Assembly: GCA_051418015.1 (NCBI GenBank)
Contig: JBPRGF010000014.1
Coordinates: 58,101 to 122,100 of the forward strand
Direction of reading: 5' to 3'
Length of the DNA: 64,000 nucleotides
Source: Candidatus Nitrospinota bacterium M3_3B_026
GTDB lineage: Bacteria > Nitrospinota_A > UBA7883 > JBPRGF01
The notes beneath the pieces are model-generated. The model searched no databases. It saw nothing but the letters and a program-made list of their open reading frames with translations, and had not been told where the DNA came from. This document shows, piece by piece, positions 46,806 to 62,590 of the stretch. The translations under genes and the position numbers were made by a program. How positions within the stretch are numbered: the first letter of the stretch is position 1; the number at the start of each line of letters is the position of its first letter.

Positions 46806-46916
46806 GGGGCATTATACAATCCCGCGGCGCCATCCCCCCTTCTCCCGGGCGCCGGTTTCAAGTAAAATCACTCGGAGTCAGCTAACCTCTTCGTTTTGAT
46901 ATTAGCGCGCGGGACA

Positions 46917-48098
46917 ATGAAAACCATCGCCAGCCTGTTGAGCATGGAAATCGCGGGGATAACCATCTACCAGTTCATCCTGAGCTTTGCCATACTGTTG
47001 GCCACCCTTACCCTGCGCAGGGTGATAACCAGGGGGATCATGCGTTGGCTGGAGTCCCGCGCCGAGCGCACGAAGACGAAGTGGGACGAGACGCTGATCT
47101 CCTCCGTCCGTCCTCCCATCGAGGCGATGATCCTGGCTTACGGCATCCTGCTGGCCATAAAGGTGCTTCCGCAGCCCGAGGAGCCTGTGAACATAAAACG
47201 CTTCGTGGAGATGGCCGGCCACGTGCTCATCCTGTTCATCGGGGCGTGGCTGCTTCTGCGGATGGTCACCGTCGTGGACATCGTCCTAAAGAGAAAAGCC
47301 GCCGACCCGAGACACTGGCTGGAGTACGGCATGGTGCCGCTGATCAGCAAATCCATAAGGATAATGATCGCCATAGTCGCCGGGATAGTGATAGCCCAGA
47401 ACATGGGCTATTCCGTGAGCGGCCTCGTCGCCTCCCTGGGCCTGGGCGGCGCGGCGCTGGCGCTCGCCTCCAAGGACACGCTTTCTAACCTGTTCGGTTC
47501 CATGATGATCCTCGTGGACAAGCCCTTCAAGGTGGGGGACTGGATAGTGGGCGACGGATTCGAGGGGATAGTCGAGGAGGTCGGATTCCGCTCCACCAGG
47601 ATCAGGACGTTCGAGAAGACGGTGCAGAACATCCCAAACAACATCCTTGCGAACATGACGGTGGAGAACATCGACAGGAGAAGGGACGCCGGGCTCAACG
47701 TCCGCAGGATCAGCATGACCGTTGGTGTGACCTACGCCACCACCGCCGACCAGATGGAAGAGGCGGTGAAAGAAATAAAGGAGATATTAAAGACCGACGA
47801 GGGCGTAAGCGGCGACGCGCCATGCCTGGTCTCCTTCACGGACTTCGGCGACTCGTCGCTGAACATTTTCGTCTACTACTTCGCCAACAAGGCCGACTGG
47901 GCCTACTATCTGAAAGTGCGGCAGAGGGTGAACCTGAAGATCATGAGGAAACTGAAGGAGCTGGGGCTTTCCGTGGCGTTCCCCTCCAGGTCGATATACC
48001 TCGAGGCCCTGCCTGGCGGCATGGAGCGGGTTCACATACCCTTGCCCCCGCCGTACACCGCGCCGGCGGACAAGCCGCCCCCGCCGACGAAGGCTTGA
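46917..48098 (+). CDS. Mechanosensitive channel (MscS family), second copy
   Basis: TM helices, then 'LVDKPFKVGDWIV..GFEGIVEEVGFRSTRIRT'. ATG 46917 chosen; TTG 46896 is an alternative. Confidence 0.82.
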   Translation: MKTIASLLSMEIAGITIYQFILSFAILLATLTLRRVITRGIMRWLESRAERTKTKWDETLISSVRPPIEAMILAYGILLAIKVLPQPEEPVNIKRFVEMAGHVLILFIGAWLLLRMVTVVDIVLKRKAADPRHWLEYGMVPLISKSIRIMIAIVAGIVIAQNMGYSVSGLVASLGLGGAALALASKDTLSNLFGSMMILVDKPFKVGDWIVGDGFEGIVEEVGFRSTRIRTFEKTVQNIPNNILANMTVENIDRRRDAGLNVRRISMTVGVTYATTADQMEEAVKEIKEILKTDEGVSGDAPCLVSFTDFGDSSLNIFVYYFANKADWAYYLKVRQRVNLKIMRKLKELGLSVAFPSRSIYLEALPGGMERVHIPLPPPYTAPADKPPPPTKA

Positions 48099-51907: not shown

Positions 51908-52030
51908 GCCCGGCTGCGAAAAGGTGGATATCCCAGGTTGCCCCCCCCTAATTCATATATAATTCATAGAACATGTCGGCTGAAAGCTGACCGTTTCTCC
52001 ACTCGGGGGGAGAGGAAGGAAACGCCCGTC

Positions 52031-53425
52031 ATGGATAAGCATTCGTCACCAGATCCTTTCGCGCTGTCTCTGCGTCACCTTGTGGCCGTCCTGTCGGTGA
52101 TATTCGCCGGAGAGGCCGTCATAATGAGCCTGATCCACCAGTTCCTGCCTGAGGATTATTTCACCATCCCCATCGCGTTTCTCGACGCCCTATTTCTCTT
52201 TCTGATAGCATTTCCGCTAATCTATTTCTTCTATCACAGGCCGCTTGCGGCCGCCTACGGCGAGTTGCTCCGCGCCGAGGAGAAAAGACAGCTCCTCCTG
52301 GACGGCTCCCCCATGGGAATATACGAGATCGGTCTCGACGGCAGGCTCGTCTTCGCCAACCGGACTTGCGTGAGATTGCTGGGATACAGGGACCGCGATG
52401 AGCTGACGGGCGGGAACGCTCACAAGCTTTTCCACTACAAGTGCGCAGACGGAACACCCTACCCAGTGGAGGAGTGCGAGGTCCACAAGGCCCACAAGGA
52501 AGACGCGGGTACGCACGTTGAGACCGATGTTCTGTGGCGGGCCGACGGAGAAAGCTTCCCCGTCGAATACTGGTCCAACCCGCTCGTCAGCGATGGCCGG
52601 GTCACGGGCTCCATCGTGACGTTCATCGACGTCACGGAGCGAAGAGAAACCGAGGAGCGCCTCCGGAAAACGAGCGCCCAGCTGATCCGCTCCGAGAAGC
52701 TGGCCTCCCTGGGCGAGCTTTCCGCCGGGGTGGCCCACGAACTCAAAAATCCCCTCAACATAGTATCCACCTCCACCCAGCTTCTGATGATGGACGAGGG
52801 CGTCCCCGCCGAGGTCATGGACCAGTACAAGATAATCATGGAGCAGGTGGGGCGATCCGTGAAGATCATAGAGAACCTGCGCGACTTCGGCAGGGAGAGA
52901 AAACCGGAGGTGAGTCAGATCGATCTCCACGAGTTTTTGAACAAGACACTGGCCCTGGTGGAGTACGAGATGAAGGTGGAGAACATAGACATTGTCCGAA
53001 GCTTCGCCGCGGCTCCGCTGACCGTGGAGGGCGACCCGGACCAACTGGCCCAGGTCTTCCTTAACATAATCAACAATGCCCGCGAGAGCATGAACGAAAA
53101 ACAGAAGACCGGCGGACCGGCGGCGCTGCGGCTGGCCGGGTGGAAAGGGCTGCTGGAGGTGGGGACCCGCGTCGAGGACGGCCTTGCCCGCGTCTCTATC
53201 AAGGACACCGGAACGGGCGTCCCAGCCGCCATGCTGGAGAAGGTGTTCGACCCGTTTTTCACGACGAAGGGGGAGAAGGGGACAGGGCTCGGCCTTTCCA
53301 TAGCCTTCGGCATCGTCGAGAACCACGGCGGGAGGATAGAGGTCGCAAGCGAGGAGGGCGGAGGCACTGAGTTCAGGGTGTTCCTGCCGCTGGCGCCGCG
53401 GGACGGGGAAATGACGGCGTCTTGA
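52031..53425 (+). CDS. Membrane-anchored PAS sensor histidine kinase
   Basis: Two N-terminal TM helices, a PAS region with a Cys/His-rich insert, the H-box 'LSAGVAHELKNPL', the N-box 'NIINNARES', G1 'IKDTGTGV' and G2 'GTGLGLSI'. Confidence 0.85.
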   Translation: MDKHSSPDPFALSLRHLVAVLSVIFAGEAVIMSLIHQFLPEDYFTIPIAFLDALFLFLIAFPLIYFFYHRPLAAAYGELLRAEEKRQLLLDGSPMGIYEIGLDGRLVFANRTCVRLLGYRDRDELTGGNAHKLFHYKCADGTPYPVEECEVHKAHKEDAGTHVETDVLWRADGESFPVEYWSNPLVSDGRVTGSIVTFIDVTERRETEERLRKTSAQLIRSEKLASLGELSAGVAHELKNPLNIVSTSTQLLMMDEGVPAEVMDQYKIIMEQVGRSVKIIENLRDFGRERKPEVSQIDLHEFLNKTLALVEYEMKVENIDIVRSFAAAPLTVEGDPDQLAQVFLNIINNARESMNEKQKTGGPAALRLAGWKGLLEVGTRVEDGLARVSIKDTGTGVPAAMLEKVFDPFFTTKGEKGTGLGLSIAFGIVENHGGRIEVASEEGGGTEFRVFLPLAPRDGEMTAS

Positions 53426-53481: not shown

Positions 53482-54450
53482 ATGGACCGATTCGACCGTA
53501 TTTACGCTCTGCACAACATCCTTGGCGCCTCGCGCTATCCCGTGTCGCGCAAAAATATCCAGGAGCGGCTCGAGTGCTCCCGCGCCACCTTCACGAGGCT
53601 CGTGGAGGACATGCGGGATTTTCTGGGCGCGCCCATAGAATATGACCGGAGGCTCAACGGCTATCACTACGCCGAGACGGACGAGGGGCCGTATGAGCTT
53701 CCCGGCCTATGGTTCAACGCCTCGGAGCTCCACGCCCTCTTGACTTGCCAGGAGCTTTTGTCCAGCGTTCAGCCCGGCCTGTTGGACGGCCACATCGCCC
53801 CGCTCAAGAAGAGGATCGGCCAGATCATGAGATCCACCGGGCTGGATCACGGCGGCGTCGGCGGCAGGATCAGGATACTGAGGATCGGCGGCCGCGCGCC
53901 GGATGAGCGGATATTCAAGACCGCCGCCGACGCGACGATCCAGCGGCGGCGGCTGCTCATCGAGTATCGCGGCAGAGAGCGGGACGAGACCACCGAAAGG
54001 GAGATATCCCCCCAGCGGCTGGCTTATTACAGGGACAATTGGTACCTGGACGCCTGGTGCCACATGAGGCGCGCCCTGCGGAGCTTCTCCGTGGACAGGA
54101 TCAGAAAAGCCGGCGCCACCTCCCGCAAGGCGAAGGAGATCAGCGGGAAAAAGCTCGACTCCTATTTCGCCGGGTCCTACGGCATATTCGCCGGGAAACC
54201 GAAACACCGGGCCGTGCTCAGGTTCAGCCGGAACGTGGCGCCATGGGTTTCGCGGGAGGTATGGTTCCCTGGCCAGGAGGGAAGGCTCGACGGCGGCGAG
54301 TATGAATTGAAAATACCATACGCCGACCCGCGGGAGCTGATCCTGGATATACTGCGCTACGGCCCGGACGTTGAGGTGATAGCCCCGGCGTCCCTCCGCC
54401 GCGCCGTCCGGGAAAGACTCCGCGCCGCCGCCCGCCAGCACGAGGTGTAG
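53482..54450 (+). CDS. HTH-WYL-domain transcriptional regulator (YafY-like)
   Basis: N-terminal wHTH 'SRYPVSRKNIQERLECSRATFTRLVEDM'. Central 'RDNWYLDAWCH' WYL motif. WCX-like C-terminal domain. Confidence 0.75.
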   Translation: MDRFDRIYALHNILGASRYPVSRKNIQERLECSRATFTRLVEDMRDFLGAPIEYDRRLNGYHYAETDEGPYELPGLWFNASELHALLTCQELLSSVQPGLLDGHIAPLKKRIGQIMRSTGLDHGGVGGRIRILRIGGRAPDERIFKTAADATIQRRRLLIEYRGRERDETTEREISPQRLAYYRDNWYLDAWCHMRRALRSFSVDRIRKAGATSRKAKEISGKKLDSYFAGSYGIFAGKPKHRAVLRFSRNVAPWVSREVWFPGQEGRLDGGEYELKIPYADPRELILDILRYGPDVEVIAPASLRRAVRERLRAAARQHEV

Positions 54451-54589
54451 GGCGCCGTTTCGCCCCGCCGCGAAAATTTTTTCCACTGCCTCACGGATTG
54501 AGGCGCCCCCTGTCGTAATCTGCCATGCGTGGAGGCCCGGCGGTGCTCCGGGCGAGGTGGTGGATTGCTTGACAGAGGAGGTCTGGATT

Positions 54590-55231
54590 ATGAAAAGCTG
54601 GAAACTTTTCGGGCGAAAGATTCGTGTGAGGGTTGTGACGCTGTTTTTCATCGGCGCCGCTGTCGCGCTTTCCGGCGCGGGAGCCGCGTCGGCGCAGGAG
54701 ACGCCCAGGGGGAACGTGAACGTCCTGCTGGGGCAGAGAAACCTGAGCAGCGACTGGGACCCCGTGGATAAACAGACGACGTTCGCCGTGGAGGTGGACT
54801 TCGCCTCCGCGGACTGGCCCGTGAACGTCATCTTCGGCATGGCCGGATCAGTGGCCGAAGAGGATACAACCGTCACCGTAACTGATGGATGGCGCCTTTA
54901 TGACGTAAACGTGACCCTTGAGGGGAAGACGTCGGAGATATACGGCGGCGGGCGCAAATACTTCGACACCGGCTCGCCAATGGCGCCATACATCGGAGCC
55001 GGCCTGTCTTTCATAAAGGCCGAGCTTTCCGCTTCGGCGGGAGGATACAAGGTTTCCCTGGACGACACCTCCGCGGGCCTTTTTATCGACGGCGGCCTGG
55101 TTTACAGGGTCGGTTCGTTCAACATCGGCCTCGATCTGCGCCTGCTGACAGGGACATCGATGGAAGCGGCTGGCTACTCCACGGACGCCAACTATACCCA
55201 GGCCGCGCTGGTCATAGGGTACGGGTGGTAA
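54590..55231 (+). CDS. Small outer-membrane beta-barrel protein (OmpW/OmpA-barrel-like)
   Basis: Signal peptide 'VVTLFFIGAAVALSGAGAASA'. Alternating amphipathic strands. C-terminal 'LVIGYGW' aromatic terminus. Confidence 0.65.
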   Translation: MKSWKLFGRKIRVRVVTLFFIGAAVALSGAGAASAQETPRGNVNVLLGQRNLSSDWDPVDKQTTFAVEVDFASADWPVNVIFGMAGSVAEEDTTVTVTDGWRLYDVNVTLEGKTSEIYGGGRKYFDTGSPMAPYIGAGLSFIKAELSASAGGYKVSLDDTSAGLFIDGGLVYRVGSFNIGLDLRLLTGTSMEAAGYSTDANYTQAALVIGYGW

Positions 55232-55420
55232 GCCTGCCCCTCCCCATGGACGGGGAGGGCTGTTAAATTCGCGCCGCGCCCCCGGATTAGATGGGCTATG
55301 GGTGTCTTTTTTTCAATGGCGCAGACTGCGCCTCAAGCTTCGGACGGCGTTTTTTTCATCCGGGCGGAAAGGCTTGCTGAACCGCCGCGCGTAAGTATAT
55401 GATGAATTACGTTGAGGTAT

Positions 55421-55497
55421 CGGGGCGTAGCGCAGCCTGGTAGCGCATCTGCTTTGGGAGCAGAGGGCCGGAGGTTCAAATCCTCTCGCCCCGACCA
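55421..55497 (+). tRNA. tRNA-Pro (anticodon TGG)
   Basis: Cloverleaf with 7-bp acceptor CGGGGCG/CGCCCCG, anticodon stem TCTGC/GCAGA, loop TTTGGGA (anticodon TGG, G37), T-loop GGTTCAAAT, encoded CCA. Confidence 0.9.
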
Positions 55498-55527
55498 ATA
55501 TGGTCATCGGCCCGCCGTCTGGGAATT

Positions 55528-55603
<76 letters not shown>

Positions 55604-55703
55604 ACGCTGAAAGTTTAAAATAGCAAAAAAACGCGCGCTTAGCAATATGGCGCCGCGCTTTACGGAAGATCACCGCAAGCTTATAACAAACCCCGGAACG
55701 GAT

Positions 55704-56396
55704 TCAGCGGCCACATGCGGGCACCCAGTTTCTCAGGGCTTTCAGAACCCGTTCCCGTTTCCTATCATTCGTCATGAAGGGCCCCCGGCTTATCTCCAGC
55801 TGGACCCAGGGAAGCTCTCCTGAGTGGGAGCGGATTATGTGGCCCCCCTTGAAAGGATCGTCGATCCTGACTTCCGGCCCGAACTGGTCCCGGAAGCTTT
55901 CCGCCAGCGCCTTCACCCATTCCCATGGACAGGAGGCCCCCTCCGCGCAACTTATGCAGACCAGCGGCCGCGCCGCCCCTTCGTCCGGGCCCACGGGCGG
56001 GCCTTCGGCGGCCATGGTGTGGCAGTCCACCCCCGCCCTCGCCTTGGGCGCAAGCTCGCTCAAGCGCCGGTGATAGGGCCTGTAATAGCGCGCGAGCAGC
56101 GTCTCTATCACATCCTCCGGCGGAGGATCCCCGTAGACGGGGACGCCCCAGCATGTGTGTGTTTTCACCACGCCGTCGGGTCCCCTGTCGTCCTCGGCGC
56201 GGTTCGGGTCCACGATCGCCCTGGCCACGTCAGTGGTAATGTAGGCCGCCACCTCATCCGCGATGTCATACACCTCCCCCGCGCCCTCGTCCCCGTCGGC
56301 GATTATGTCCTCCGGCGAAAGCGAGGCGTAGCCTTGCGCTTCGGCCGGGATGGAGAGTCCGGCGTGGGGGACGGAGATGAGAAGAGGCAGCGTCAT
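55704..56396 (-). CDS. N-formylglutamate amidohydrolase-family protein
   Basis: 'LISVPHAGLSIP' N-terminal motif. 230 aa. The start overlaps the GGT stop by 4 nt. Confidence 0.7.
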   Translation of the reverse strand: MTLPLLISVPHAGLSIPAEAQGYASLSPEDIIADGDEGAGEVYDIADEVAAYITTDVARAIVDPNRAEDDRGPDGVVKTHTCWGVPVYGDPPPEDVIETLLARYYRPYHRRLSELAPKARAGVDCHTMAAEGPPVGPDEGAARPLVCISCAEGASCPWEWVKALAESFRDQFGPEVRIDDPFKGGHIIRSHSGELPWVQLEISRGPFMTNDRKRERVLKALRNWVPACGR

Positions 56397-57979
56397 CGCC
56401 GCGCCCCCCCGGCCGAGCCGTCCCGCCGCGGGTCGGCCACGGCGATGAACTTGGCGCCGTCGCGCATGACCATCTGTACGCAGCCGAGGTAGAAGGAGTA
56501 AGGCTTGCGTATGTCTGTCTCGTACCCTTCCGCCTCCAGGGCGTCGATGATATCGCTTCGCATCCTGGTCGCCTCAAGGGAGACTTTGCCGTCCAGCGAG
56601 CAGCTCATCCTCGCCGCCGCTACGGCCTCCAGTGGGCTGTGTCCCGCCCTCAGCCGCAAAAGAACCTGCGCTATGGCGGCGGCTATCCTCTCGCTTCCCG
56701 GCGAACCCAGGGCCAGCCACGGCTTCCGGCCGAGGAAGACGATGGTGGGCGCGACGCTGGCCCAGGGGACGGCGGCTGGGCGCAGATAGTGCGGATGCCT
56801 TATGTCCCCGTACTCGAAGGCGCTCATATAGTTGTTGTATAAAAAGCCAAGGCCCGGCGCGGCCTCGAAGGAGCCGTACACCCTCTCGATCGACTGGGTG
56901 AGCGCGACGACGTTGCCGAACCTGTCCATCACTGAAAGATGCGTGGTGTCCCCCCGCCTTTCTATCTCGTCCCGCACCTTGTCCGCCACGGTCTGGGCGT
57001 ATTCCGTGCTCAGCATCTTCTTTGTGCGCCGTTGCGGATAATAGGTCGGGTCGAAGGGGCGGTCTTTCCTGTCGATCTGGCTTTGGCGGATGACCGCCGC
57101 CAGGGCGAGCGCGGCTTCGGGGGTGTCCGGGTCCCGGAGCCGCTCCGGCAGGCGGTCTAGTATGTTCAGCATCTCGATAAGGGGCCTGCCGGCGCCCGGG
57201 GGGGGGAACGTGATAACCTTCCACGCCCCGAACCTGCAGGAGATCGGCCTGCGTTCCACCGGCCATGGTATCTGGGCGAGGTCGTCCTTTCTTATCAACC
57301 CGCCATTTTCCACCATGTCCTCGTGGATGACCCTTGCTATCTTGCCGTGATAGAAGGAGCCGGGGCCGTTTTTTGAAAACCTTTTCAGGGTCTCCGCCAG
57401 GACCGGCTGCTTCAGGATCTCGCCCGCTGGGTAGGGCCGCCTGCCGTCCTTCAGGAAAAACCTGGCGGCGCTGGATTTTCTGAGTTTTTTCAACTCCCGC
57501 TTTGTCAGCCTGTTCATCAGCGATGAGACCTCGAACCCCTCCTCGGCGAACCTTATCGCCGGAGCGAGGACCTGCCTTCTTTTCAGTTTCCCGAAGCTCC
57601 TGCGGGCGTATTCCAGGACGGCGGGTGTGCTGGGGACGGTGGTGGCGCCATGGCCGCGCAAAAGGTCTTTTTTCAAGTACTCGCCGGGTATCACGCGATG
57701 AGGCGCCCTGGAAGAGCCGTCGAGGGCGATGGTCTTGCGTGAGTTGGCGGTGTATATCATCATCATGGTTTGCCCCCCCAGGCCGGAGGCGAACGGCTCG
57801 ACGACGCCGAGGGCGTAGGCGGCCGCCACCGCCGCGTCCACCGCGAGTCCGCCCATCTCGAGGATCTCCACCGCCGCCTCGGTAGCCCTGTAGTGGGCCG
57901 TGGCGGCCGCGCCGTGGCGGGAGGCCGCTATCCGTTGCGGCTCCACGGGACGGGCAGCGGCGAAGCCGCGCTCAATCAT
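56393..57979 (-). CDS. ggt: Gamma-glutamyltranspeptidase-family protein lacking a signal peptide (cytoplasmic GGT-like)
   Basis: 'TAHYRATEAAVEILEMGGLAVDAAVA', 'GLGGQTMMMIY', 'TTHLSVMDRFGNVVALTQSIERVYGS' (autoprocessing Thr). ATG 57979 chosen inside the 817-aa ORF. Confidence 0.82.
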   Translation of the reverse strand: MIERGFAAARPVEPQRIAASRHGAAATAHYRATEAAVEILEMGGLAVDAAVAAAYALGVVEPFASGLGGQTMMMIYTANSRKTIALDGSSRAPHRVIPGEYLKKDLLRGHGATTVPSTPAVLEYARRSFGKLKRRQVLAPAIRFAEEGFEVSSLMNRLTKRELKKLRKSSAARFFLKDGRRPYPAGEILKQPVLAETLKRFSKNGPGSFYHGKIARVIHEDMVENGGLIRKDDLAQIPWPVERRPISCRFGAWKVITFPPPGAGRPLIEMLNILDRLPERLRDPDTPEAALALAAVIRQSQIDRKDRPFDPTYYPQRRTKKMLSTEYAQTVADKVRDEIERRGDTTHLSVMDRFGNVVALTQSIERVYGSFEAAPGLGFLYNNYMSAFEYGDIRHPHYLRPAAVPWASVAPTIVFLGRKPWLALGSPGSERIAAAIAQVLLRLRAGHSPLEAVAAARMSCSLDGKVSLEATRMRSDIIDALEAEGYETDIRKPYSFYLGCVQMVMRDGAKFIAVADPRRDGSAGGARR

Positions 57980-57981
57980 TT

Positions 57982-60171
57982 TCAGCCGGAAGCGGTTTTG
58001 CGGGATTTGCCACGCTTTTTCTCCTCCACTATCTCCCCGGCCAGAAACTGCGCCAGAAGAAGCGTCCGCTGGATGAGGCTTATCCTTTGTACCGCCTCCT
58101 GTGCGGTGTAGACGTCCCGGGCCACGGGGCCCGCGCCGCAGACCACGGAAGCGCCCTCCGGCGCAAGACCCGCCACAGATGGCCACACCGAAGACTCGTA
58201 GTCGAGCGGGATGTCCCAGCGCGATGCTATGCCTTTCAGCTTTCTGGCGAGGCGGAGGGTACCCTGTTTTTTTTGCATCGGCGGCCTGTCGGATACGACG
58301 GAAAGCTCCAGGCGCAGGCCGGTGTTGACAAGGATCGATCTGATCTTCTTCTCGGTCCTGTCGGCCGTCCTGACATCCGGGTAGGAGGCCAGGATCGAGA
58401 CCCATGCCTTGTGCGGCAGCATCATCGGAAAGCCGTCCACCCTGATGTCCACGGGGGAAACGGCAAGGCGCTCCTTGCGCGAGGAGATGGCGGAAAGCTT
58501 CTTCATCGTGGAAAATATCCAGGAAAGAGGCTCCGGCTCTTTGGAGAGTTTGCCGAGGGGCTGCGGCTTGCCCTCGACCAGGAGACGGTATCGGCGCTGC
58601 CCCCTGCGCTGGGTCACCAGCCGGCCCCCGGGATTGGCCGGGCGCAGAACAATCGTCCGGCCCGCGCGGGCCATGGCGCCGGATATCGTCCCGGCGCTGT
58701 ACCTGCAGCCGCTCCCTTCGTCGGTGTAGAAAAGAACGCCAAGGGGAACGCGGCGCAGGAGACGATGCGCCCGGAGCGACCTTAAGGCGTACTCCATCAT
58801 GACCAGCGGCGCGCGGGAGCAGCCCACGCCCTCGCCGTAGAGCCATTCCGGATCAACGCGGAACCTTTCCGCGGGGGTGGAAGGGTCCAGGGGGACGTCC
58901 AGGTGGGCCACAAGCAGGATTCCTCCCTCGAAGCCCTTCTTTGTCTCCCAGGCCCACGTGGCCCTTTTCTCGCTAAGTTCCCTGACGGGCGTCATGCCCA
59001 TCTCATCGAAAAAATCGCCGAGCCGTTTCACCACCGCCTCGATCCCCACCGGGTCCGCCGTCCTGCTCGACACCCCCACCCACCGGCCAAGGCTTTTTTC
59101 TATCTGGTCCCGCCTTTGCGTGAGGTAGCCAAGGACAAGGCTCTCCGGCTCCTTTTTCTCCACCGCGACGGGGGTGGGGCTGGGCGTGCCGAAATACCTG
59201 GCGCTGGCCACCTCGATGAGCCGTTTTACGAGGGCGTCGTAGTCCAGCCCGTCGTGCTCCGCCGCGGCGGTGTAAGATCCGTGCTCGCCCAGGCTGGGGA
59301 GACTGTTCACCTCCAGTATGTAAATGTTCCCCGCGGCGTCGATGCGCATGTCCACCCTGGCGCAGTCGTAACAGCCGAGGGCGGAGAAGGCGCGCAACGC
59401 CAGCTCTTTCGCCTCCGAGGCGGTCTGGGGGCTTATCCTGGCGGGGCATACGGGGTGTATCTCCCTGCCGGACCTTTTGGTCTTGTCCTCGTATGTATAG
59501 ATGGGGGGGCCGCTGGAGCCGAAGTCTATCTCCGCCGGGGTCAGGGCCTCCGGCGGGTCGTTGCCTATGAGCCCCACGTTTATCTCCTTGCCCTCGATGA
59601 ACCTCTCCACGAGGGCGGGCTGGTGGAACTCCCTGAATATGTAGTCCGCGGCCTCCCTTAGCTCTTCTTCATTTTCCACTATGGTAAGCCCCATGGAGAC
59701 GGCCTCGTTCTTTGCTTTCACTATCAGGGGATATTCAAGCTCCGGCTGCTCGAAACCTGGGCCGTAGAGCACGGCGAAATCCGGTGTGGGCAGGCCGCTC
59801 TGGCGGAAGATCATCTTCGCCACAACTTTGTCGAGGGCCAGCGAGTGGGCCAGGGGGCCGGAGCCGACGTAGGGGATCCCCACCATCTCCAGGATGCTTG
59901 GCACGTGTGTGTACCGGGCCTGGCCCTGGATGCCGTACGACAGGTTGAAGACCATGCCCGGCCGCTCCCCCTTAAGCGCGCTGGGCATGAAGCTTTGCAG
60001 CTTGTCTATCAGGTCCTTGTCGCCCTCGAGGGCCACCGTCTTGTATCCCCCCTTTTTCAGGGCGTCCATTATGCGCCGGATCGTCCTGAGGCCGTAGCGC
60101 TCCCTGTTCGGCGTTCCGAACAGGTTTATCACGTTCCTGCTCTCCCGGTTATAAACGACGGCTATCTTCAT
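57982..60171 (-). CDS. D-Ala-D-Ala-ligase-like ATP-grasp enzyme fused to an M20-peptidase-like domain (possibly degenerate)
   Basis: N-terminal 320 aa: 'GIPYVGSGPLAHSLALDKVVAK', 'KAKNEAVSMGLTIVENEEEL', 'VERFIEGKEINVGLIGN', 'CARVDMRIDAAGNIYILEVNSLPS' (Ddl family). C-terminal 400 aa: 'LLVAHLDVPLD', 'YTDEGSG' M20-like metal-site remnants. The canonical GxxDDKG Asp is absent. Confidence 0.75.
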   Translation of the reverse strand: MKIAVVYNRESRNVINLFGTPNRERYGLRTIRRIMDALKKGGYKTVALEGDKDLIDKLQSFMPSALKGERPGMVFNLSYGIQGQARYTHVPSILEMVGIPYVGSGPLAHSLALDKVVAKMIFRQSGLPTPDFAVLYGPGFEQPELEYPLIVKAKNEAVSMGLTIVENEEELREAADYIFREFHQPALVERFIEGKEINVGLIGNDPPEALTPAEIDFGSSGPPIYTYEDKTKRSGREIHPVCPARISPQTASEAKELALRAFSALGCYDCARVDMRIDAAGNIYILEVNSLPSLGEHGSYTAAAEHDGLDYDALVKRLIEVASARYFGTPSPTPVAVEKKEPESLVLGYLTQRRDQIEKSLGRWVGVSSRTADPVGIEAVVKRLGDFFDEMGMTPVRELSEKRATWAWETKKGFEGGILLVAHLDVPLDPSTPAERFRVDPEWLYGEGVGCSRAPLVMMEYALRSLRAHRLLRRVPLGVLFYTDEGSGCRYSAGTISGAMARAGRTIVLRPANPGGRLVTQRRGQRRYRLLVEGKPQPLGKLSKEPEPLSWIFSTMKKLSAISSRKERLAVSPVDIRVDGFPMMLPHKAWVSILASYPDVRTADRTEKKIRSILVNTGLRLELSVVSDRPPMQKKQGTLRLARKLKGIASRWDIPLDYESSVWPSVAGLAPEGASVVCGAGPVARDVYTAQEAVQRISLIQRTLLLAQFLAGEIVEEKKRGKSRKTASG

Positions 60172-60309
60172 CGCTCCCTCATCGGTTTTGAGGCCGCGGG
60201 GCCTGGAGCGCCCCTCCGGGATATTCTAACCGCCAAACATGGCGGGGAAAACGAAAGAAAACGCGGGGCGGGGGGCGGAGGCTCAAGGCGCTGACATGGC
60301 CGGCCGGTC

Positions 60310-60420
60310 TGTCTCAGTCCCACGTTGTCATTCTGAGGCGAAGGCGAAGAATCCCGCCACCTCCGGCATGGCCGCGCGGGATACTGCGCTGGCGCTCAGC
60401 ATGACATTATCGAAGCGTCA
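60310..60420. repeat. Dispersed inverted-repeat element family, locus C
   Basis: 'gtcattctgaggcgaaggcgaagaatcccgc' and the inverted copy 'gcgctcagcatgacatt'. Intergenic between the ATP-grasp gene start and the hemL stop. Confidence 0.55.
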
Positions 60421-60446
60421 CGCTCGATTCGATGATGTCGCTCTTC

Positions 60447-61727
60447 TCAAAGGCCTTTCAGGGATTCTTCCGCGGCCTCGAGTGTTTTGTCTATGTCGCC
60501 TTCCGTGTGGGCGAGCGACATGAACCCGGCCTCGAACTGGGACGGGGCGAGGTAGACTCCCCGCTCCAGCATGGCGCGGAAGAACTTTCCGAACTTTTCG
60601 GTGTCGGAGGTCTTCGCCGTCTTGTAGTCATAGACCTCCGGCTCGCCGGTGAAGAAGGTGATGAACATCGCCCCGGCGCGGTTGTGTACGGATGGTGTTT
60701 TCAGCCTGTCAGTGATCTCCTTCAACCCTTCGCCGAGCTTTGCGGAAAGCTCCTCCAGCCTCTCGTAGACACCGTCTTCCTTCAGGATTTTAAGCGTCTC
60801 GATCCCCGCCGCCATGGCCAACGGGTTGCCGGAGAGTGTCCCCGCCTGGTAGACGGGCCCCGACGGGGCGACTTTTTCCATGATCTCCCGCCTGCCCCCG
60901 TAGGCGCCGACGGGCAGCCCGCCGCCTATGACCTTGCCCAGCGTCGTAAGGTCCGGCGTGACGCCGTAGCGCTCCTGGGCGCCCCCGTAGGCCACGCGGA
61001 AACCGGTCATCACCTCGTCGAAGATGAGCACCACGCCATACCTGTCACAAAGCTTGCGCAGTCCCTCCAAGTAGCCCGGCTTGGGCGGTATACAACCCAT
61101 GTTGCCGACTATGGGCTCGAGTATCACGCAGGCGATGTTGTCCCCCTCGGCGGAAAGCTCCCGCTCCACCGCGTCAAGGTCGTTGAAGGGGAGCGAGCGG
61201 GTGAGGTTGGCCAGCGCCGCGGGGACGCCGGGCGAGTTCGGCAGACCGAGCGTCTCCACCCCCGAGCCGGCCTGTACAAGCAGAGAGTCCGGACAGCCGT
61301 GATAGCATCCGTCGAACTTTATTATCCCGTCGCGCCCCGTGAATCCGCGCGCCAGGCGGATGGCGCTCATGGTGGCCTCCGTGCCGGAGTTTACCATCCT
61401 GACCATCTCGATCGACGGAACGGCGTCCACTACCATCCGGGCCATCTCCACCTCCAGCTCCGTCGGCGCGCCGAAGGACGATCCGTTCTCCAGGGCTTTT
61501 CTGACCGCCTCGGTGACCCGCGGGTTGGCGTGGCCCGCGATCATCGGGCCCCAGGAGCCGACGTAGTCGATGTATTCGTTCCCGTCGACATCGAATATTT
61601 TCGAGCCGGCGGCCTTTTTTATGAAAGGCGGCTCGGCGCCCACGGCGCTGAAGGCCCGGACGGGGCTGTTCACTCCGCCGGGGATTATCTTTTTGGCTCT
61701 CTCGAAAAGCTCGGAAGACTCGCTCAT
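60447..61727 (-). CDS. hemL: Glutamate-1-semialdehyde 2,1-aminomutase
   Basis: '[13 protein letters not shown]', '[15 protein letters not shown]', '[10 protein letters not shown]', '[17 protein letters not shown]' (PLP-Lys). Start at MSESSE inside the longer ORF. Confidence 0.95.
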
Positions 61728-61741
61728 CTGAAAAATCCTTG

Positions 61742-62590
61742 CTAAATGTATTTCCCGATGATTATGTCCAGGTCCTTTTTCGTCTTGTCCGGGATCATCT
61801 CGGGCTTGGTGATGATCCCATATTGAAGCGCGCTGGCGCAGTGGCAGTCTCTTTCCCCCTTGATTTCCGGGACGGCGGCCTTTATGGCGGCCTTGGAGTT
61901 TTCTATGTTCGAGGCCATGGTCTTGAGCACCTGTTCTATGGTGACGTCCTCCTCGCTCCAGCAGTCGTAGTCCGTCGCCAGGGCCAGGGTGGCGTAGCAA
62001 ACTTCCGCCTCGCGGGCGAGCTTGGCCTCCTGCAGGTTCGTCATGCCTATGACGTCGGCGCCCCAGGAACGGTACAGGTTCGACTCCGCCCTGGTGGAAA
62101 ACTGCGGCCCCTCCATGCAGATGTATGTCCCGCCCTTGTGTGAGGCCCAGCCAATCTTGCGCGTGGCCTCGTAGAGAACGTCGCTCAGGTAGGGGCAGAC
62201 AGGGTCGGCGAAGGTGATGTGGGCCACGATTCCGTCGCCGAAAAAGGTCCCCGTCCGCGTCCCCCGGGTCCTGTCTATGAACTGGTCGATGACCACCGCG
62301 TGGCCCGGTTCTATCTCCTCCTTCAGCGAGCCGACGGCGGAGACGGATATGATCCTGTCCACGCCGAGCTTTTTCATGGCCCAGACGTTGGCGCGGAAGT
62401 TAAGCTCCGACGGCAGTATCCTGTGGCCCCGGCCGTGGCGCGGCAGGAAAGCCATCTCCACGCCGCCGAGTTCGCCCAGGACAAGCTCGTCAGAAGGGTC
62501 GCCGAAGGGGGTGGGGACCTTTTCCGTCCTCACGTTGGCGAGCCCCTCCATCTCGTACAGGCCGCTTCCGCCTATAACCCCGATGGTCAT
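61742..62590 (-). CDS. mtnP: S-methyl-5'-thioadenosine phosphorylase
   Basis: '[10 protein letters not shown]', '[21 protein letters not shown]', '[16 protein letters not shown]', and a PNP-fold C-terminus. Confidence 0.9.

Follow-up and report, generated by a model that had tools for sequence, protein, structure and literature searches.

An ATP-grasp/pseudo-M20 fusion and its conserved GGT- and FGase-family partners: a putative glutamyl-amide module in diverse bacteria

A 64,000-nucleotide stretch of the genome of Candidatus Nitrospinota bacterium M3_3B_026 (GenBank assembly GCA_051418015.1, contig JBPRGF010000014.1; the whole stretch is called the window here) carries three genes on its minus strand at positions 55704-60171. 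Gene 1 encodes a 729-amino-acid (aa) fusion of an ATP-grasp domain with an M20-like domain, gene 2 a GGT-family protein and gene 3 a member of the N-formylglutamate amidohydrolase (FGase) family (Table 1). An initial annotation had read this set as a ligase with accompanying hydrolases whose target is an N-acyl or gamma-linked glutamyl compound. The core of that hedged idea is supported, because the D-Ala-specificity residues of the ligase domain are lost, the alpha-amino-binding Asp of the GGT is gone and the three genes are co-conserved. The part that did not hold is the M20 half as a hydrolase, since this domain is a pseudo-enzyme.

Inspection of the open reading frames (ORFs) confirmed the three minus-strand genes. 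The 4-nt overlaps claimed for them were correct for gene 2 and gene 3, which share an ATGA at 56393-56396, and incorrect for gene 1 and gene 2. The latter junction reads TGA-AA-ATG, with two A separating the stop codon (57982-57984) from the ATG at 57979 and no overlap. An 817-aa version of gene 2 proposed by the ORF finder is an extension that overlaps gene 1 out of frame, and the ATG at 57979 was taken as the start.

The fusion protein

The N-terminal half of gene 1 resembles the D-Ala-D-Ala ligases (Ddl). Pfam Dala_Dala_lig_C (PF07478) matched residues 122-320 (E=1e-40), hhalign paired the half with E. coli DdlB at 99.8% probability, and Foldseek searches with an AlphaFold2 model gave target-normalised TM values of up to 0.84 against Ddl structures. 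The DdlB reference was a 306-aa sequence that we take to be correct, its length and well-known residue positions agreeing by hand count. All nine residues for ATP binding, Mg binding and catalysis were kept (DdlB/fusion: K97/K115, K144/K152, E180/E189, E187/E196, K215/K230, R255/R272, D257/D274, E270/E287 and N272/N289). In contrast, the residues that confer D-Ala specificity were changed: H63→Y79, E68→Q84 (with a 2-aa insert), S150→V158, Y216→T231, S281→G298 and L282→S299, with the region of DdlB E15 unaligned. The claim that this domain carries all Ddl motifs is therefore right for the catalytic machinery and wrong for the specificity residues.

The replacing residues are themselves invariant in the family, for example in the segments V14-I-N-L-F-G19, S78-Y-G-I-Q-G-Q-A-R-Y-T-H-V-P91 and K152-x-K-N-E-A-V-S159. 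The invariant loops 14-24, 78-91 and 152-161 correspond to three segments of low pLDDT in the AlphaFold2 model, as would be expected for mobile loops that close over a substrate. All NCBIfam Ddl models scored below their cut-offs, with NF002378 the best (182.2 vs 243 bits) and TIGR01205 at 165.7 vs 245.65. Weak TTL and RimK Pfam signal was seen within the domain. Because every residue for ATP binding, Mg binding and phosphoryl transfer is retained, the N-terminal half is very probably an acyl-phosphate-forming amide ligase, predicted to be active and to have a specificity other than that of Ddl. Identity as a functional D-Ala-D-Ala ligase was rejected on the replaced specificity residues and the scores under the curated cut-offs. 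This agrees with the earlier expectation of a substrate other than D-Ala-D-Ala.

The C-terminal half has the fold of the dimeric M20 peptidases. Pfam Peptidase_M20 reached 18.9 bits over residues 420-594, under its gathering score of 24.6. A 66-sequence profile of this half matched carboxypeptidase G2 (CPG2) with E=1.8e-13; a profile search had been named in advance as the check on the M20 assignment, and it returned the expected family. Foldseek aligned residues ~335-729 with 1cg2/6xj5 over ~395 columns (E=4e-24 to 2e-23), with a target-normalised TM of 0.74-0.75 against CPG2 that covered both the catalytic and the lid domains. The M20 poly(aspartate) hydrolase PahZ2 was also matched by Foldseek, and canonical stand-alone M20 proteins (~390 aa) were matched by the C-domain in phmmer (E ~1e-18).

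The catalytic residues of CPG2 were mapped onto the fusion through an alignment to CPG2 and two canonical M20 relatives, together with column counts across the family. This scoring of the metal ligands, proposed with the initial annotation, found one of the five kept: H423 (CPG2 H112), present in ~90%. The bridging ligand D141 corresponds to variable position 451 (C/S/V/A/I/T/L/M), and the metal ligands E176, E200 and H385 correspond to invariant G486, to R510 (N in a few) and to Y688 (also G/H/R/F). The transition-state His of the lid motif 'GxxxHxG' is lost (→L). Retained were the HxD motif, the general base E175 as E485 and the substrate-carboxylate Arg R324 as invariant R629. The loss of the second metal-binding Asp motif had been noticed before, and 'YGEGVGCSRA' indeed stands in its place; the extent had been understated, with four of five di-zinc ligands replaced across the family rather than one. 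In a second, divergent subfamily of the fusion (subfamily 2), the metal site is degenerate in a different way (DEE→D-C/N/D-S/T). Fusions with an intact active site were sought among divergent members and none was found, both subfamilies being degenerate.

Despite these losses the former pocket is strongly conserved, at H423, D425, S452, R453, D484, E485, R510, R522, R523, R629 and E692, the reference being a mean column identity of 58% for the domain. The domain has gained several invariant Arg residues in its former active site, and R453, R522, R523, R696 and R702 vary little or not at all. Canonical di-zinc hydrolysis is excluded because the metal ligands and lid His are replaced, and the C-terminal half is, as judged from its residues, a pseudo-peptidase. 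It probably serves as a carboxylate-ligand-binding and/or dimerisation module, the conserved pocket speaking for the binding of a ligand.

The fusion had been called rare, which proved untenable. A search of 5.8 billion proteins gave 1,736 protein-cluster matches among the scored candidates. The gene 1 protein was 100% identical to one from the M3_3B_026 metagenome-assembled genome, and the best 120 homologues were 713-761 aa long and 58-69% identical, at 96-100% query coverage. Scanning one genome per GTDB species located close relatives in at least 197 genomes of at least 11 phyla. Subfamily 2 (seed P0206) comprised more than 1,240 clusters of its own, with hosts in Gemmatimonadota, KSB1, Latescibacteria, Chitinivibrionales, Magnetomorum/Magnetoglobus and Nitrosomonas. 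A phmmer search of the whole library, with only the C-domain as query, recovered more fusions, at identities down to 26%, and no split or stand-alone pseudo-M20 protein; its short high-scoring matches were N-truncated fragments of fusions. In every assembly the fusion is a single ORF. An artefact of frameshift merging, which the initial annotation had named as a possible refutation, is ruled out by this and by the wide occurrence. The AlphaFold2 model, built with the 120 homologues, had a mean pLDDT of 87 and a pTM of 0.56. Database labels for the protein are 'D-alanine-D-alanine ligase' and 'M20 family metallo-hydrolase', both probably wrong, as well as 'ATP-grasp domain-containing protein'.

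The downstream genes and the conserved gene order

Gene 2 matched PF01019 (G_glu_transpept) over its full length (363.9 bits, E=2e-108) and scored just under the TIGR00066 cut-off (317 vs 358). Its residues are numbered here on a 530-aa translation from 57985, so that numbers in the real protein are lower by 2. The Thr nucleophile, T347, aligned with the first residue of solved small subunits and was invariant, and the oxyanion-hole region was retained. R93, equivalent to the alpha-carboxylate-binding R114 of the E. coli enzyme (Ec), was present in 62/66 sequences. The alpha-amino-binding residues were changed: Ec N411→E367, Q430→Y386 (66/66) and D433→A389 (61/66). The signature NNYM(S)A(F)E recurred in the GGTs of subfamily-2 modules. 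The protein begins 16 residues ahead of the conserved core, with query residue 17 aligned to residue 35, in the mature region, of B. licheniformis GGT. This leaves no room for a signal peptide, and at least 38 of 65 homologues have no possible upstream extension of more than 4 aa. The earlier description of the enzyme as leaderless, and hence cytoplasmic, is borne out.

Similar changes have been engineered into other GGTs. Leaderless intracellular GGTs are known from Geobacillus, Thermus and Deinococcus (PMC8062742). The D445A variant of BsGGT lost transpeptidation and kept hydrolysis, and EcGGT D433N and BsGGT E423Y/E442Q/D445N became active on glutaryl-7-ACA, an acyl donor that lacks the alpha-amine (PMC8062742). 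Because the alpha-amino-binding Asp and Gln are gone and the Thr and Arg are kept, as in these engineered GGTs, we infer that gene 2 encodes a cytoplasmic hydrolase acting on a glutaryl-like acyl group with an acylated, missing or displaced alpha-amine. A glutathione-type GGT was rejected, the residues that bind a free alpha-amine not being kept; a secretion signal, common in the family but not universal, is absent as well. In one locus (L025:9769-11418; L numbers denote individual loci) the module GGT and the FGase gene are separated by another GGT, which has a hydrophobic leader at its N-terminus and keeps the canonical Asp, in contrast to the leaderless A389-type enzyme.

The assignment of gene 3 to the FGase family was upheld by PF05013 (139.2 bits vs a gathering score of 28.9, E=3e-40). 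Its PDB match was 2q7s (E=3e-7), with which it shares the motifs PH(A/S)G, DxNR, YHxxL, CH(T/S)M, PFxGG and QxE; H11, D63, N65, R66, H80, H109, H126 and E201 are invariant in its family. The score against the HutG equivalog TIGR02017 was 60.7 bits vs a cut-off of 278.75, and histidine-utilisation (hut) genes were not a recurrent neighbour among the gene clusters of 80 related loci (below) or in the window. HutG identity was rejected on both counts. Known members of the family split R-CO-NH-Glu, a bond type that is also recognised by CPG2. The low HutG score, the lack of hut genes and the shorter protein (230 aa) make a different N-acyl-Glu or C-terminal Glu compound the probable substrate. Taken together, the three proteins are predicted to be a self-contained cytoplasmic set.

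Gene neighbourhoods were compared in 80 loci kept from the 197 genomes with a close fusion relative. Their hosts include Nitrospinota, Nitrospirota, Planctomycetota (Phycisphaerae, Pirellulales and Scalindua), Desulfobacterota and Myxococcota; gammaproteobacterial sulfur oxidisers (Thiodiazotropha, Sedimenticolaceae, Thiomargarita, Thiohalocapsa and Imhoffiella) and one member of the Rhodobacterales; and Acidobacteriota, Acidimicrobiales, Latescibacterota, Cloacimonadota and others. Judged by organism and sample names, almost all are marine or saline, and three are cultured: Desulfoluna butyratoxydans MSL71, Thiohalocapsa halophila DSM 6210 and Imhoffiella purpurea AK35.

The order fusion→GGT→FGase on one strand was found in 59 of the 70 loci with at least 2.4 kb downstream. 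Beyond these, tblastn located the FGase in two more loci, and the GGT/FGase pair was inverted in one. The triad also followed a divergent subfamily-1 fusion (L087) and subfamily-2 fusions (L086, L092 and L093; in L093 an inserted chemoreceptor gene precedes the FGase), and a leaderless GGT followed the fusion on a partial contig (L082). The triad persisted with fusions whose C-domain is 23-31% identical to that of the window, and with subfamily-2 fusions ~40% identical to P0206. The co-conservation of neighbours that the initial annotation had counted on is thus present in both subfamilies, and its depth is strong evidence for one pathway or complex. Clustering of the ORFs of the 80 loci and the window region yielded no further family in more than 8 of 81 loci. 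The hemL gene and a repeat, earlier noted as flanking the operon, were rejected as parts of the system along with the tRNAs, none being conserved beside the module elsewhere; downstream of the operon in the window stand tRNA-Pro and tRNA-Ala.

In five of the 80 loci (L020, L034, L035, L044 and L050), all from Thiotrichales-type sulfur oxidisers, GGT and FGase are absent and a class-I glutamine amidotransferase (GATase) stands in their place. This 195-aa protein (e.g. L050:2511-3098), whose Cys/His/Glu motif is intact, is encoded at a distance of 30-77 nt from the fusion. It scored 2e-25 against Pfam GATase and 1e-6 against Peptidase_C26, and is GuaA-N-like at a score below the cut-off. In an identity matrix, four of the five GATase-linked fusions were 77-87% identical to GGT-linked fusions of related genomes; that of L020 was ~66-68% identical to its closest relatives, which are GGT-linked. 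All five carry the dead M20 signature. GGT and GATase have in common the cleavage of gamma-glutamyl amides through an acyl-enzyme, which fits either hydrolysis of a product or the supply of ammonia or an amine.

Proposed function and alternatives

The scheme we propose is that the module uses ATP to make, and turns over by hydrolysis, either an oligo-gamma-glutamyl compound or a glutamyl amide of the N-blocked or beta-amino type, a proposition that we regard as evenly balanced. The ligase would use ATP to phosphorylate the carboxylate of a glutamate-type compound and would then couple an amine or ammonia to it. The dead M20 domain may clamp the substrate or product by its N-acyl-Glu-like, carboxylate-bearing end. 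The GGT-like enzyme would hydrolyse a gamma-type amide whose alpha-amine is blocked, absent or beta-shifted, and the FGase-like enzyme would remove the N-acyl group or C-terminal Glu of the same compound. The cell would thereby form, and break down under regulation, a short gamma-glutamyl chain or a small amide of an N-blocked glutamyl or glutaminyl group, and this compound could plausibly act as a compatible solute or glutamate reserve for osmotic adaptation. A role of the product as osmolyte or glutamate reserve is a tentative suggestion. Doubtful in its full form is the reading that adds the most detail: an undescribed cytoplasmic solute or store (a beta-glutamyl or N-acyl-glutaminyl amide or dipeptide, or a short reversible oligo-gamma-glutamate), made by a ligase that has a dead CPG2 domain for its substrate clamp. 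This would be a new pathway of osmoadaptation that marine-sediment bacteria of over ten phyla came to share through horizontal transfer.

Several neighbouring genes hint at osmotic adaptation. An MscS channel gene lies near the module in eight loci (the window, L001, L005, L024, L026, L033, L043 and L080) and is adjacent to it in some. In L092 the triad is flanked by a Na/Ca exchanger gene on one side and by CorA, SLC12 cotransporter and Usp genes on the other. A KamA-family radical-SAM aminomutase gene follows the fusion in L083 and L084 and the FGase in L017; its best specific model was glutamate 2,3-aminomutase (2e-73 over the first half in L083). These neighbours hint at beta-amino-acid chemistry. 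A GNAT gene follows the fusion in L085. Elsewhere in the window we found no KamA-family gene and no second Ddl. Documented osmolytes include N-acetylglutaminylglutamine amide, N-alpha-carbamoylglutamine amide, beta-glutamate and beta-glutamine, the first of which has been reported for halophilic purple sulfur bacteria (PMC1224877, PMC9337991).

A number of points weigh against this proposal. The osmotic link draws on neighbours found in a minority of loci (8, 4, 2-3 and 1) and on organism names, and some lineages of subfamily 2 (Gemmatimonadota, Nitrosomonas) may not be marine. A synthetase and hydrolases encoded in one operon would form a futile cycle unless regulated. The dead M20 domain could be a dimerisation scaffold alone, and the geometry between the two domains of the modelled fusion is uncertain (pTM 0.56). 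The replacement of two hydrolases by one GATase fits ammonia supply at least as well as product hydrolysis. Finally, the functional scheme is a computational prediction.

The GATase loci are also the starting point for an unlikely alternative, in which the GGT-like enzyme or the GATase serves as a glutaminase that feeds ammonia to the ATP-grasp domain, which would amidate a carboxylate through an acyl-phosphate, by the logic of carbamoyl-phosphate synthetase CarA/CarB, to give a carboxamide such as a glutamine-amide-type solute. The GuaA-N-like GATase, with its intact Cys/His/Glu motif and its position 30-77 nt from orthologous fusions in the five loci that lack GGT and FGase, speaks in its favour, and GGTs do have glutaminase activity, the D→A variant still being hydrolytic (PMC8062742). 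However, a GGT-family glutaminase is not known in any amidotransferase, the lost alpha-amino-binding Asp speaks against free glutamine as the donor, and the FGase partner, co-conserved in ~60 of 70 loci, would be left without a role. It is less credible again that the ligase tags the C-terminus of a protein or peptide in the manner of RimK or TTL, with GGT and FGase removing the tag. That idea draws on the weak TTL and RimK signal in the ATP-grasp domain, on the recognition of R-CO-NH-Glu by CPG2 and FGase, which amounts to C-terminal Glu chemistry, and on L076, where the fusion adjoins genes for a MATCAP/QEGLA carboxypeptidase, a GshB-like ATP-grasp protein and an FGase. Yet the L076 layout is a single case, the loci clustered contained no conserved gene for a target protein or precursor peptide, and GGT-family substrates are small gamma-glutamyl compounds or poly-gamma-Glu.

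Remodelling of a cofactor's gamma-glutamyl tail (folate, F420 or a methanofuran-like compound), or turnover of a glutathione-type thiol, would suit a C-domain whose closest solved relative, CPG2, binds pteroyl-Glu, as well as the resemblance of the replacing GATase to Peptidase_C26/gamma-glutamyl hydrolase (E=1e-6); a Ddl-like ATP-grasp domain also acts as the glutathione synthetase of GshF. We consider this very improbable: genes for cofactor or thiol biosynthesis were not linked to the module in the loci clustered, folate is universal whereas the module is patchy, and the free alpha-amine of glutathione is a mismatch for A389 and Y386. Least probable of all is a role in peptidoglycan metabolism, either as an alternative D-Ala-D-Ala (or D-Ala-X) ligase or in cytoplasmic recycling of the murein peptide L-Ala-gamma-D-Glu-mDAP (mDAP, meso-diaminopimelate). 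The N-domain does find its best sequence and fold matches among Ddl enzymes, and the N-acylated, gamma-linked D-Glu of the stem peptide would suit a GGT without an alpha-amine pocket and an N-acyl-Glu amidase. Against this stand the sub-cut-off scores with all NCBIfam Ddl models (182 vs 243), replacement of the E15/S150/Y216 triad and of the D-Ala2 contacts, the absence of mur/dcw context in the 80 loci, and a patchy, niche-linked distribution unlike that of a housekeeping wall function.

If synthesis and turnover of a glutamate-derived solute or reserve is indeed what the module performs, marine osmoadaptation and nitrogen budgeting would gain a further pathway. Thousands of metagenomic proteins belong to the module, and key lineages of the sea carry it, among them Nitrospinota, anammox bacteria (Scalindua), sulfate reducers, purple and lucinid-symbiont sulfur oxidisers, Planctomycetota, and Acidobacteriota and Acidimicrobiales associated with sponges. 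A live ligase obligately fused to a dead peptidase would be a clean case of pseudo-enzyme recruitment, and the natural D→A/Q→Y GGT may offer a ready-made hydrolase of des-amino or N-acyl gamma-glutamyl compounds with possible biocatalytic use. The three cultured carriers make the module testable.

Related systems and flanking features

Each protein of the module was compared with its nearest named relatives. The fusion shares with Ddl the three-domain ATP-grasp fold and all residues for ATP binding, Mg binding and phosphoryl transfer; it differs in the replaced D-Ala site, the fused M20-like domain and the lack of cell-wall gene context. Its C-domain has the complete catalytic and lid/dimerisation fold of CPG2 and the dimeric M20 enzymes (DapE, ArgE, PahZ2 and the carnosinases), with HxD, E485 and R629, but lacks their metal site and is never seen as a separate protein. 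With the GGT/class IV cephalosporin-acylase-like Ntn hydrolases, gene 2 has in common PF01019, the Thr nucleophile, the alpha-carboxylate Arg and the oxyanion-hole region. It departs from the glutathione-cleaving GGTs through Ec D433→Ala and Q430→Tyr, in both subfamilies of the module, and is nearer to the engineered glutaryl-acylase variants. Gene 3 and HutG share PF05013 membership and motifs, whereas gene 3 is shorter and has no hut genes nearby.

Synthetases paired with hydrolases are known in several pathways. Examples are glutathionylspermidine synthetase/amidase, carnosine synthase (ATP-grasp) with carnosinase (M20), LysX (ATP-grasp) with LysK (M20), and cyanophycin synthetase with its anchoring domain. 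The module is like these in coupling an ATP-grasp ligase to an amidohydrolase-type module that recognises the same compound, and like the carnosine and LysW pathways in pairing an M20 fold with ATP-grasp. It differs in that the fused domain is dead and the live hydrolases, GGT and FGase, are separate; the likeness drawn here is one of logic. The clusters of QEGLA/MATCAP (TIGR02421), GshB-like ATP-grasp and FGase genes in Proteobacteria are also similar, combining a ligase, an FGase-family enzyme and a carboxypeptidase, and such genes adjoin the fusion in L076. Those clusters, however, have a ligase of the GshB/RimK clade where the module has a Ddl-like one, an active MATCAP where it has a dead M20 domain, and no GGT.

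The module stands outside all of the named synthetase/hydrolase pairings, and each of its parts fails at least one defining test of the enzyme it is named after. Full-text literature searches on the gene combination returned no account of the module, an earlier mention in a comparative-genomics survey not being excluded. The module is a widespread, probably mis-annotated assembly of ordinary folds; its unusual elements are the pseudo-enzyme fusion and the naturally re-tooled GGT.

Table 1. Features of the operon, its surroundings in the window and aminomutase genes in other loci
Feature	Position	Strand	Basis or remark
Gene 1, ATP-grasp/M20-like fusion, 729 aa	57982..60171	minus	ORF; stop codon 57982-57984
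ATP-grasp domain of gene 1, residues 1-330	59182..60171	minus	PF07478, DdlB alignment
CPG2-like M20 domain of gene 1, residues 331-729	57985..59181	minus	Foldseek, profile
Gene 2, leaderless GGT-family Ntn hydrolase, 528 aa	56393..57979	minus	PF01019; ATG at 57979
Gene 3, FGase-family (PF05013) amidohydrolase, 230 aa	55704..56396	minus	PF05013
Presumed promoter/5' region of the operon, 275 nt	60172..60446	minus	Sequence reading; between hemL and gene 1
hemL (class-III aminotransferase) and MTAP-like phosphorylase (61742-62590)	60447-62590	minus	Upstream of the operon; 4-nt overlap
tRNA-Ala(GGC)	55528-55603	minus	Directly downstream of the FGase gene; a weak Rfam 'tmRNA' call is this tRNA
tRNA-Pro(TGG)	55421-55497	plus	Directly downstream of the FGase gene; convergent with tRNA-Ala
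Small outer-membrane beta-barrel protein	54557-55231	plus	Between the MscS gene and the operon
WYL/WCX-domain regulator	53482-54450	plus	Between the MscS gene and the operon
PAS histidine kinase	51938-53425	plus	Between the MscS gene and the operon
MscS-family mechanosensitive channel gene	46896-48098	plus	~7.6 kb from the operon
KamA-family aminomutases	L083:2626-3306, L084:2433-2624, L017:7326-9140		Two unrelated lineages

Within the presumed promoter region a GAGGGAG stands just 5' of the gene 1 ATG. A scan of the operon strand of this region found no promoter-like site, and promoter and terminator scanning was uninformative. Rfam scans of the window region and ten related loci returned tRNAs only and no regulatory RNA family. 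A 110-aa ORF at 55313-55645 is spurious and reads across tRNA-Pro and tRNA-Ala. The histidine kinase, WYL/WCX regulator and beta-barrel genes of the window were not conserved beside the module in any other locus. Upstream of the operon, the real start of hemL is probably near 61745, the 517-aa version given by the ORF finder being over-extended at its 5' end.

Other loci showed further arrangements around the fusion. In L076 (8550-12649), from an Acidobacteriota metagenome-assembled genome, a gene for a MATCAP/QEGLA (TIGR02421) carboxypeptidase comes after the fusion, then one for a GshB-like ATP-grasp ligase and one for an FGase of a second type. This places two ligase/peptidase modules of similar logic side by side. 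A PGA_cap gene (CapA/PgsA family, poly-gamma-glutamate capsule) lies ~2.3 kb downstream of the triad in L087 (14642-15712, minus strand), a single case. Four loci have an agmatinase gene (TIGR01230, above cut-off) in the vicinity of the fusion. In L018 and L052 (e.g. L052:4938-5816) it lies immediately upstream with the same orientation; in L014 and L026 it is more distant or on the other strand. A ~240-aa protein with a protein-kinase domain adjoins the fusion in seven loci from several phyla (L003, L019, L031, L032, L058, L061 and L064; e.g. L003:5181-5909).

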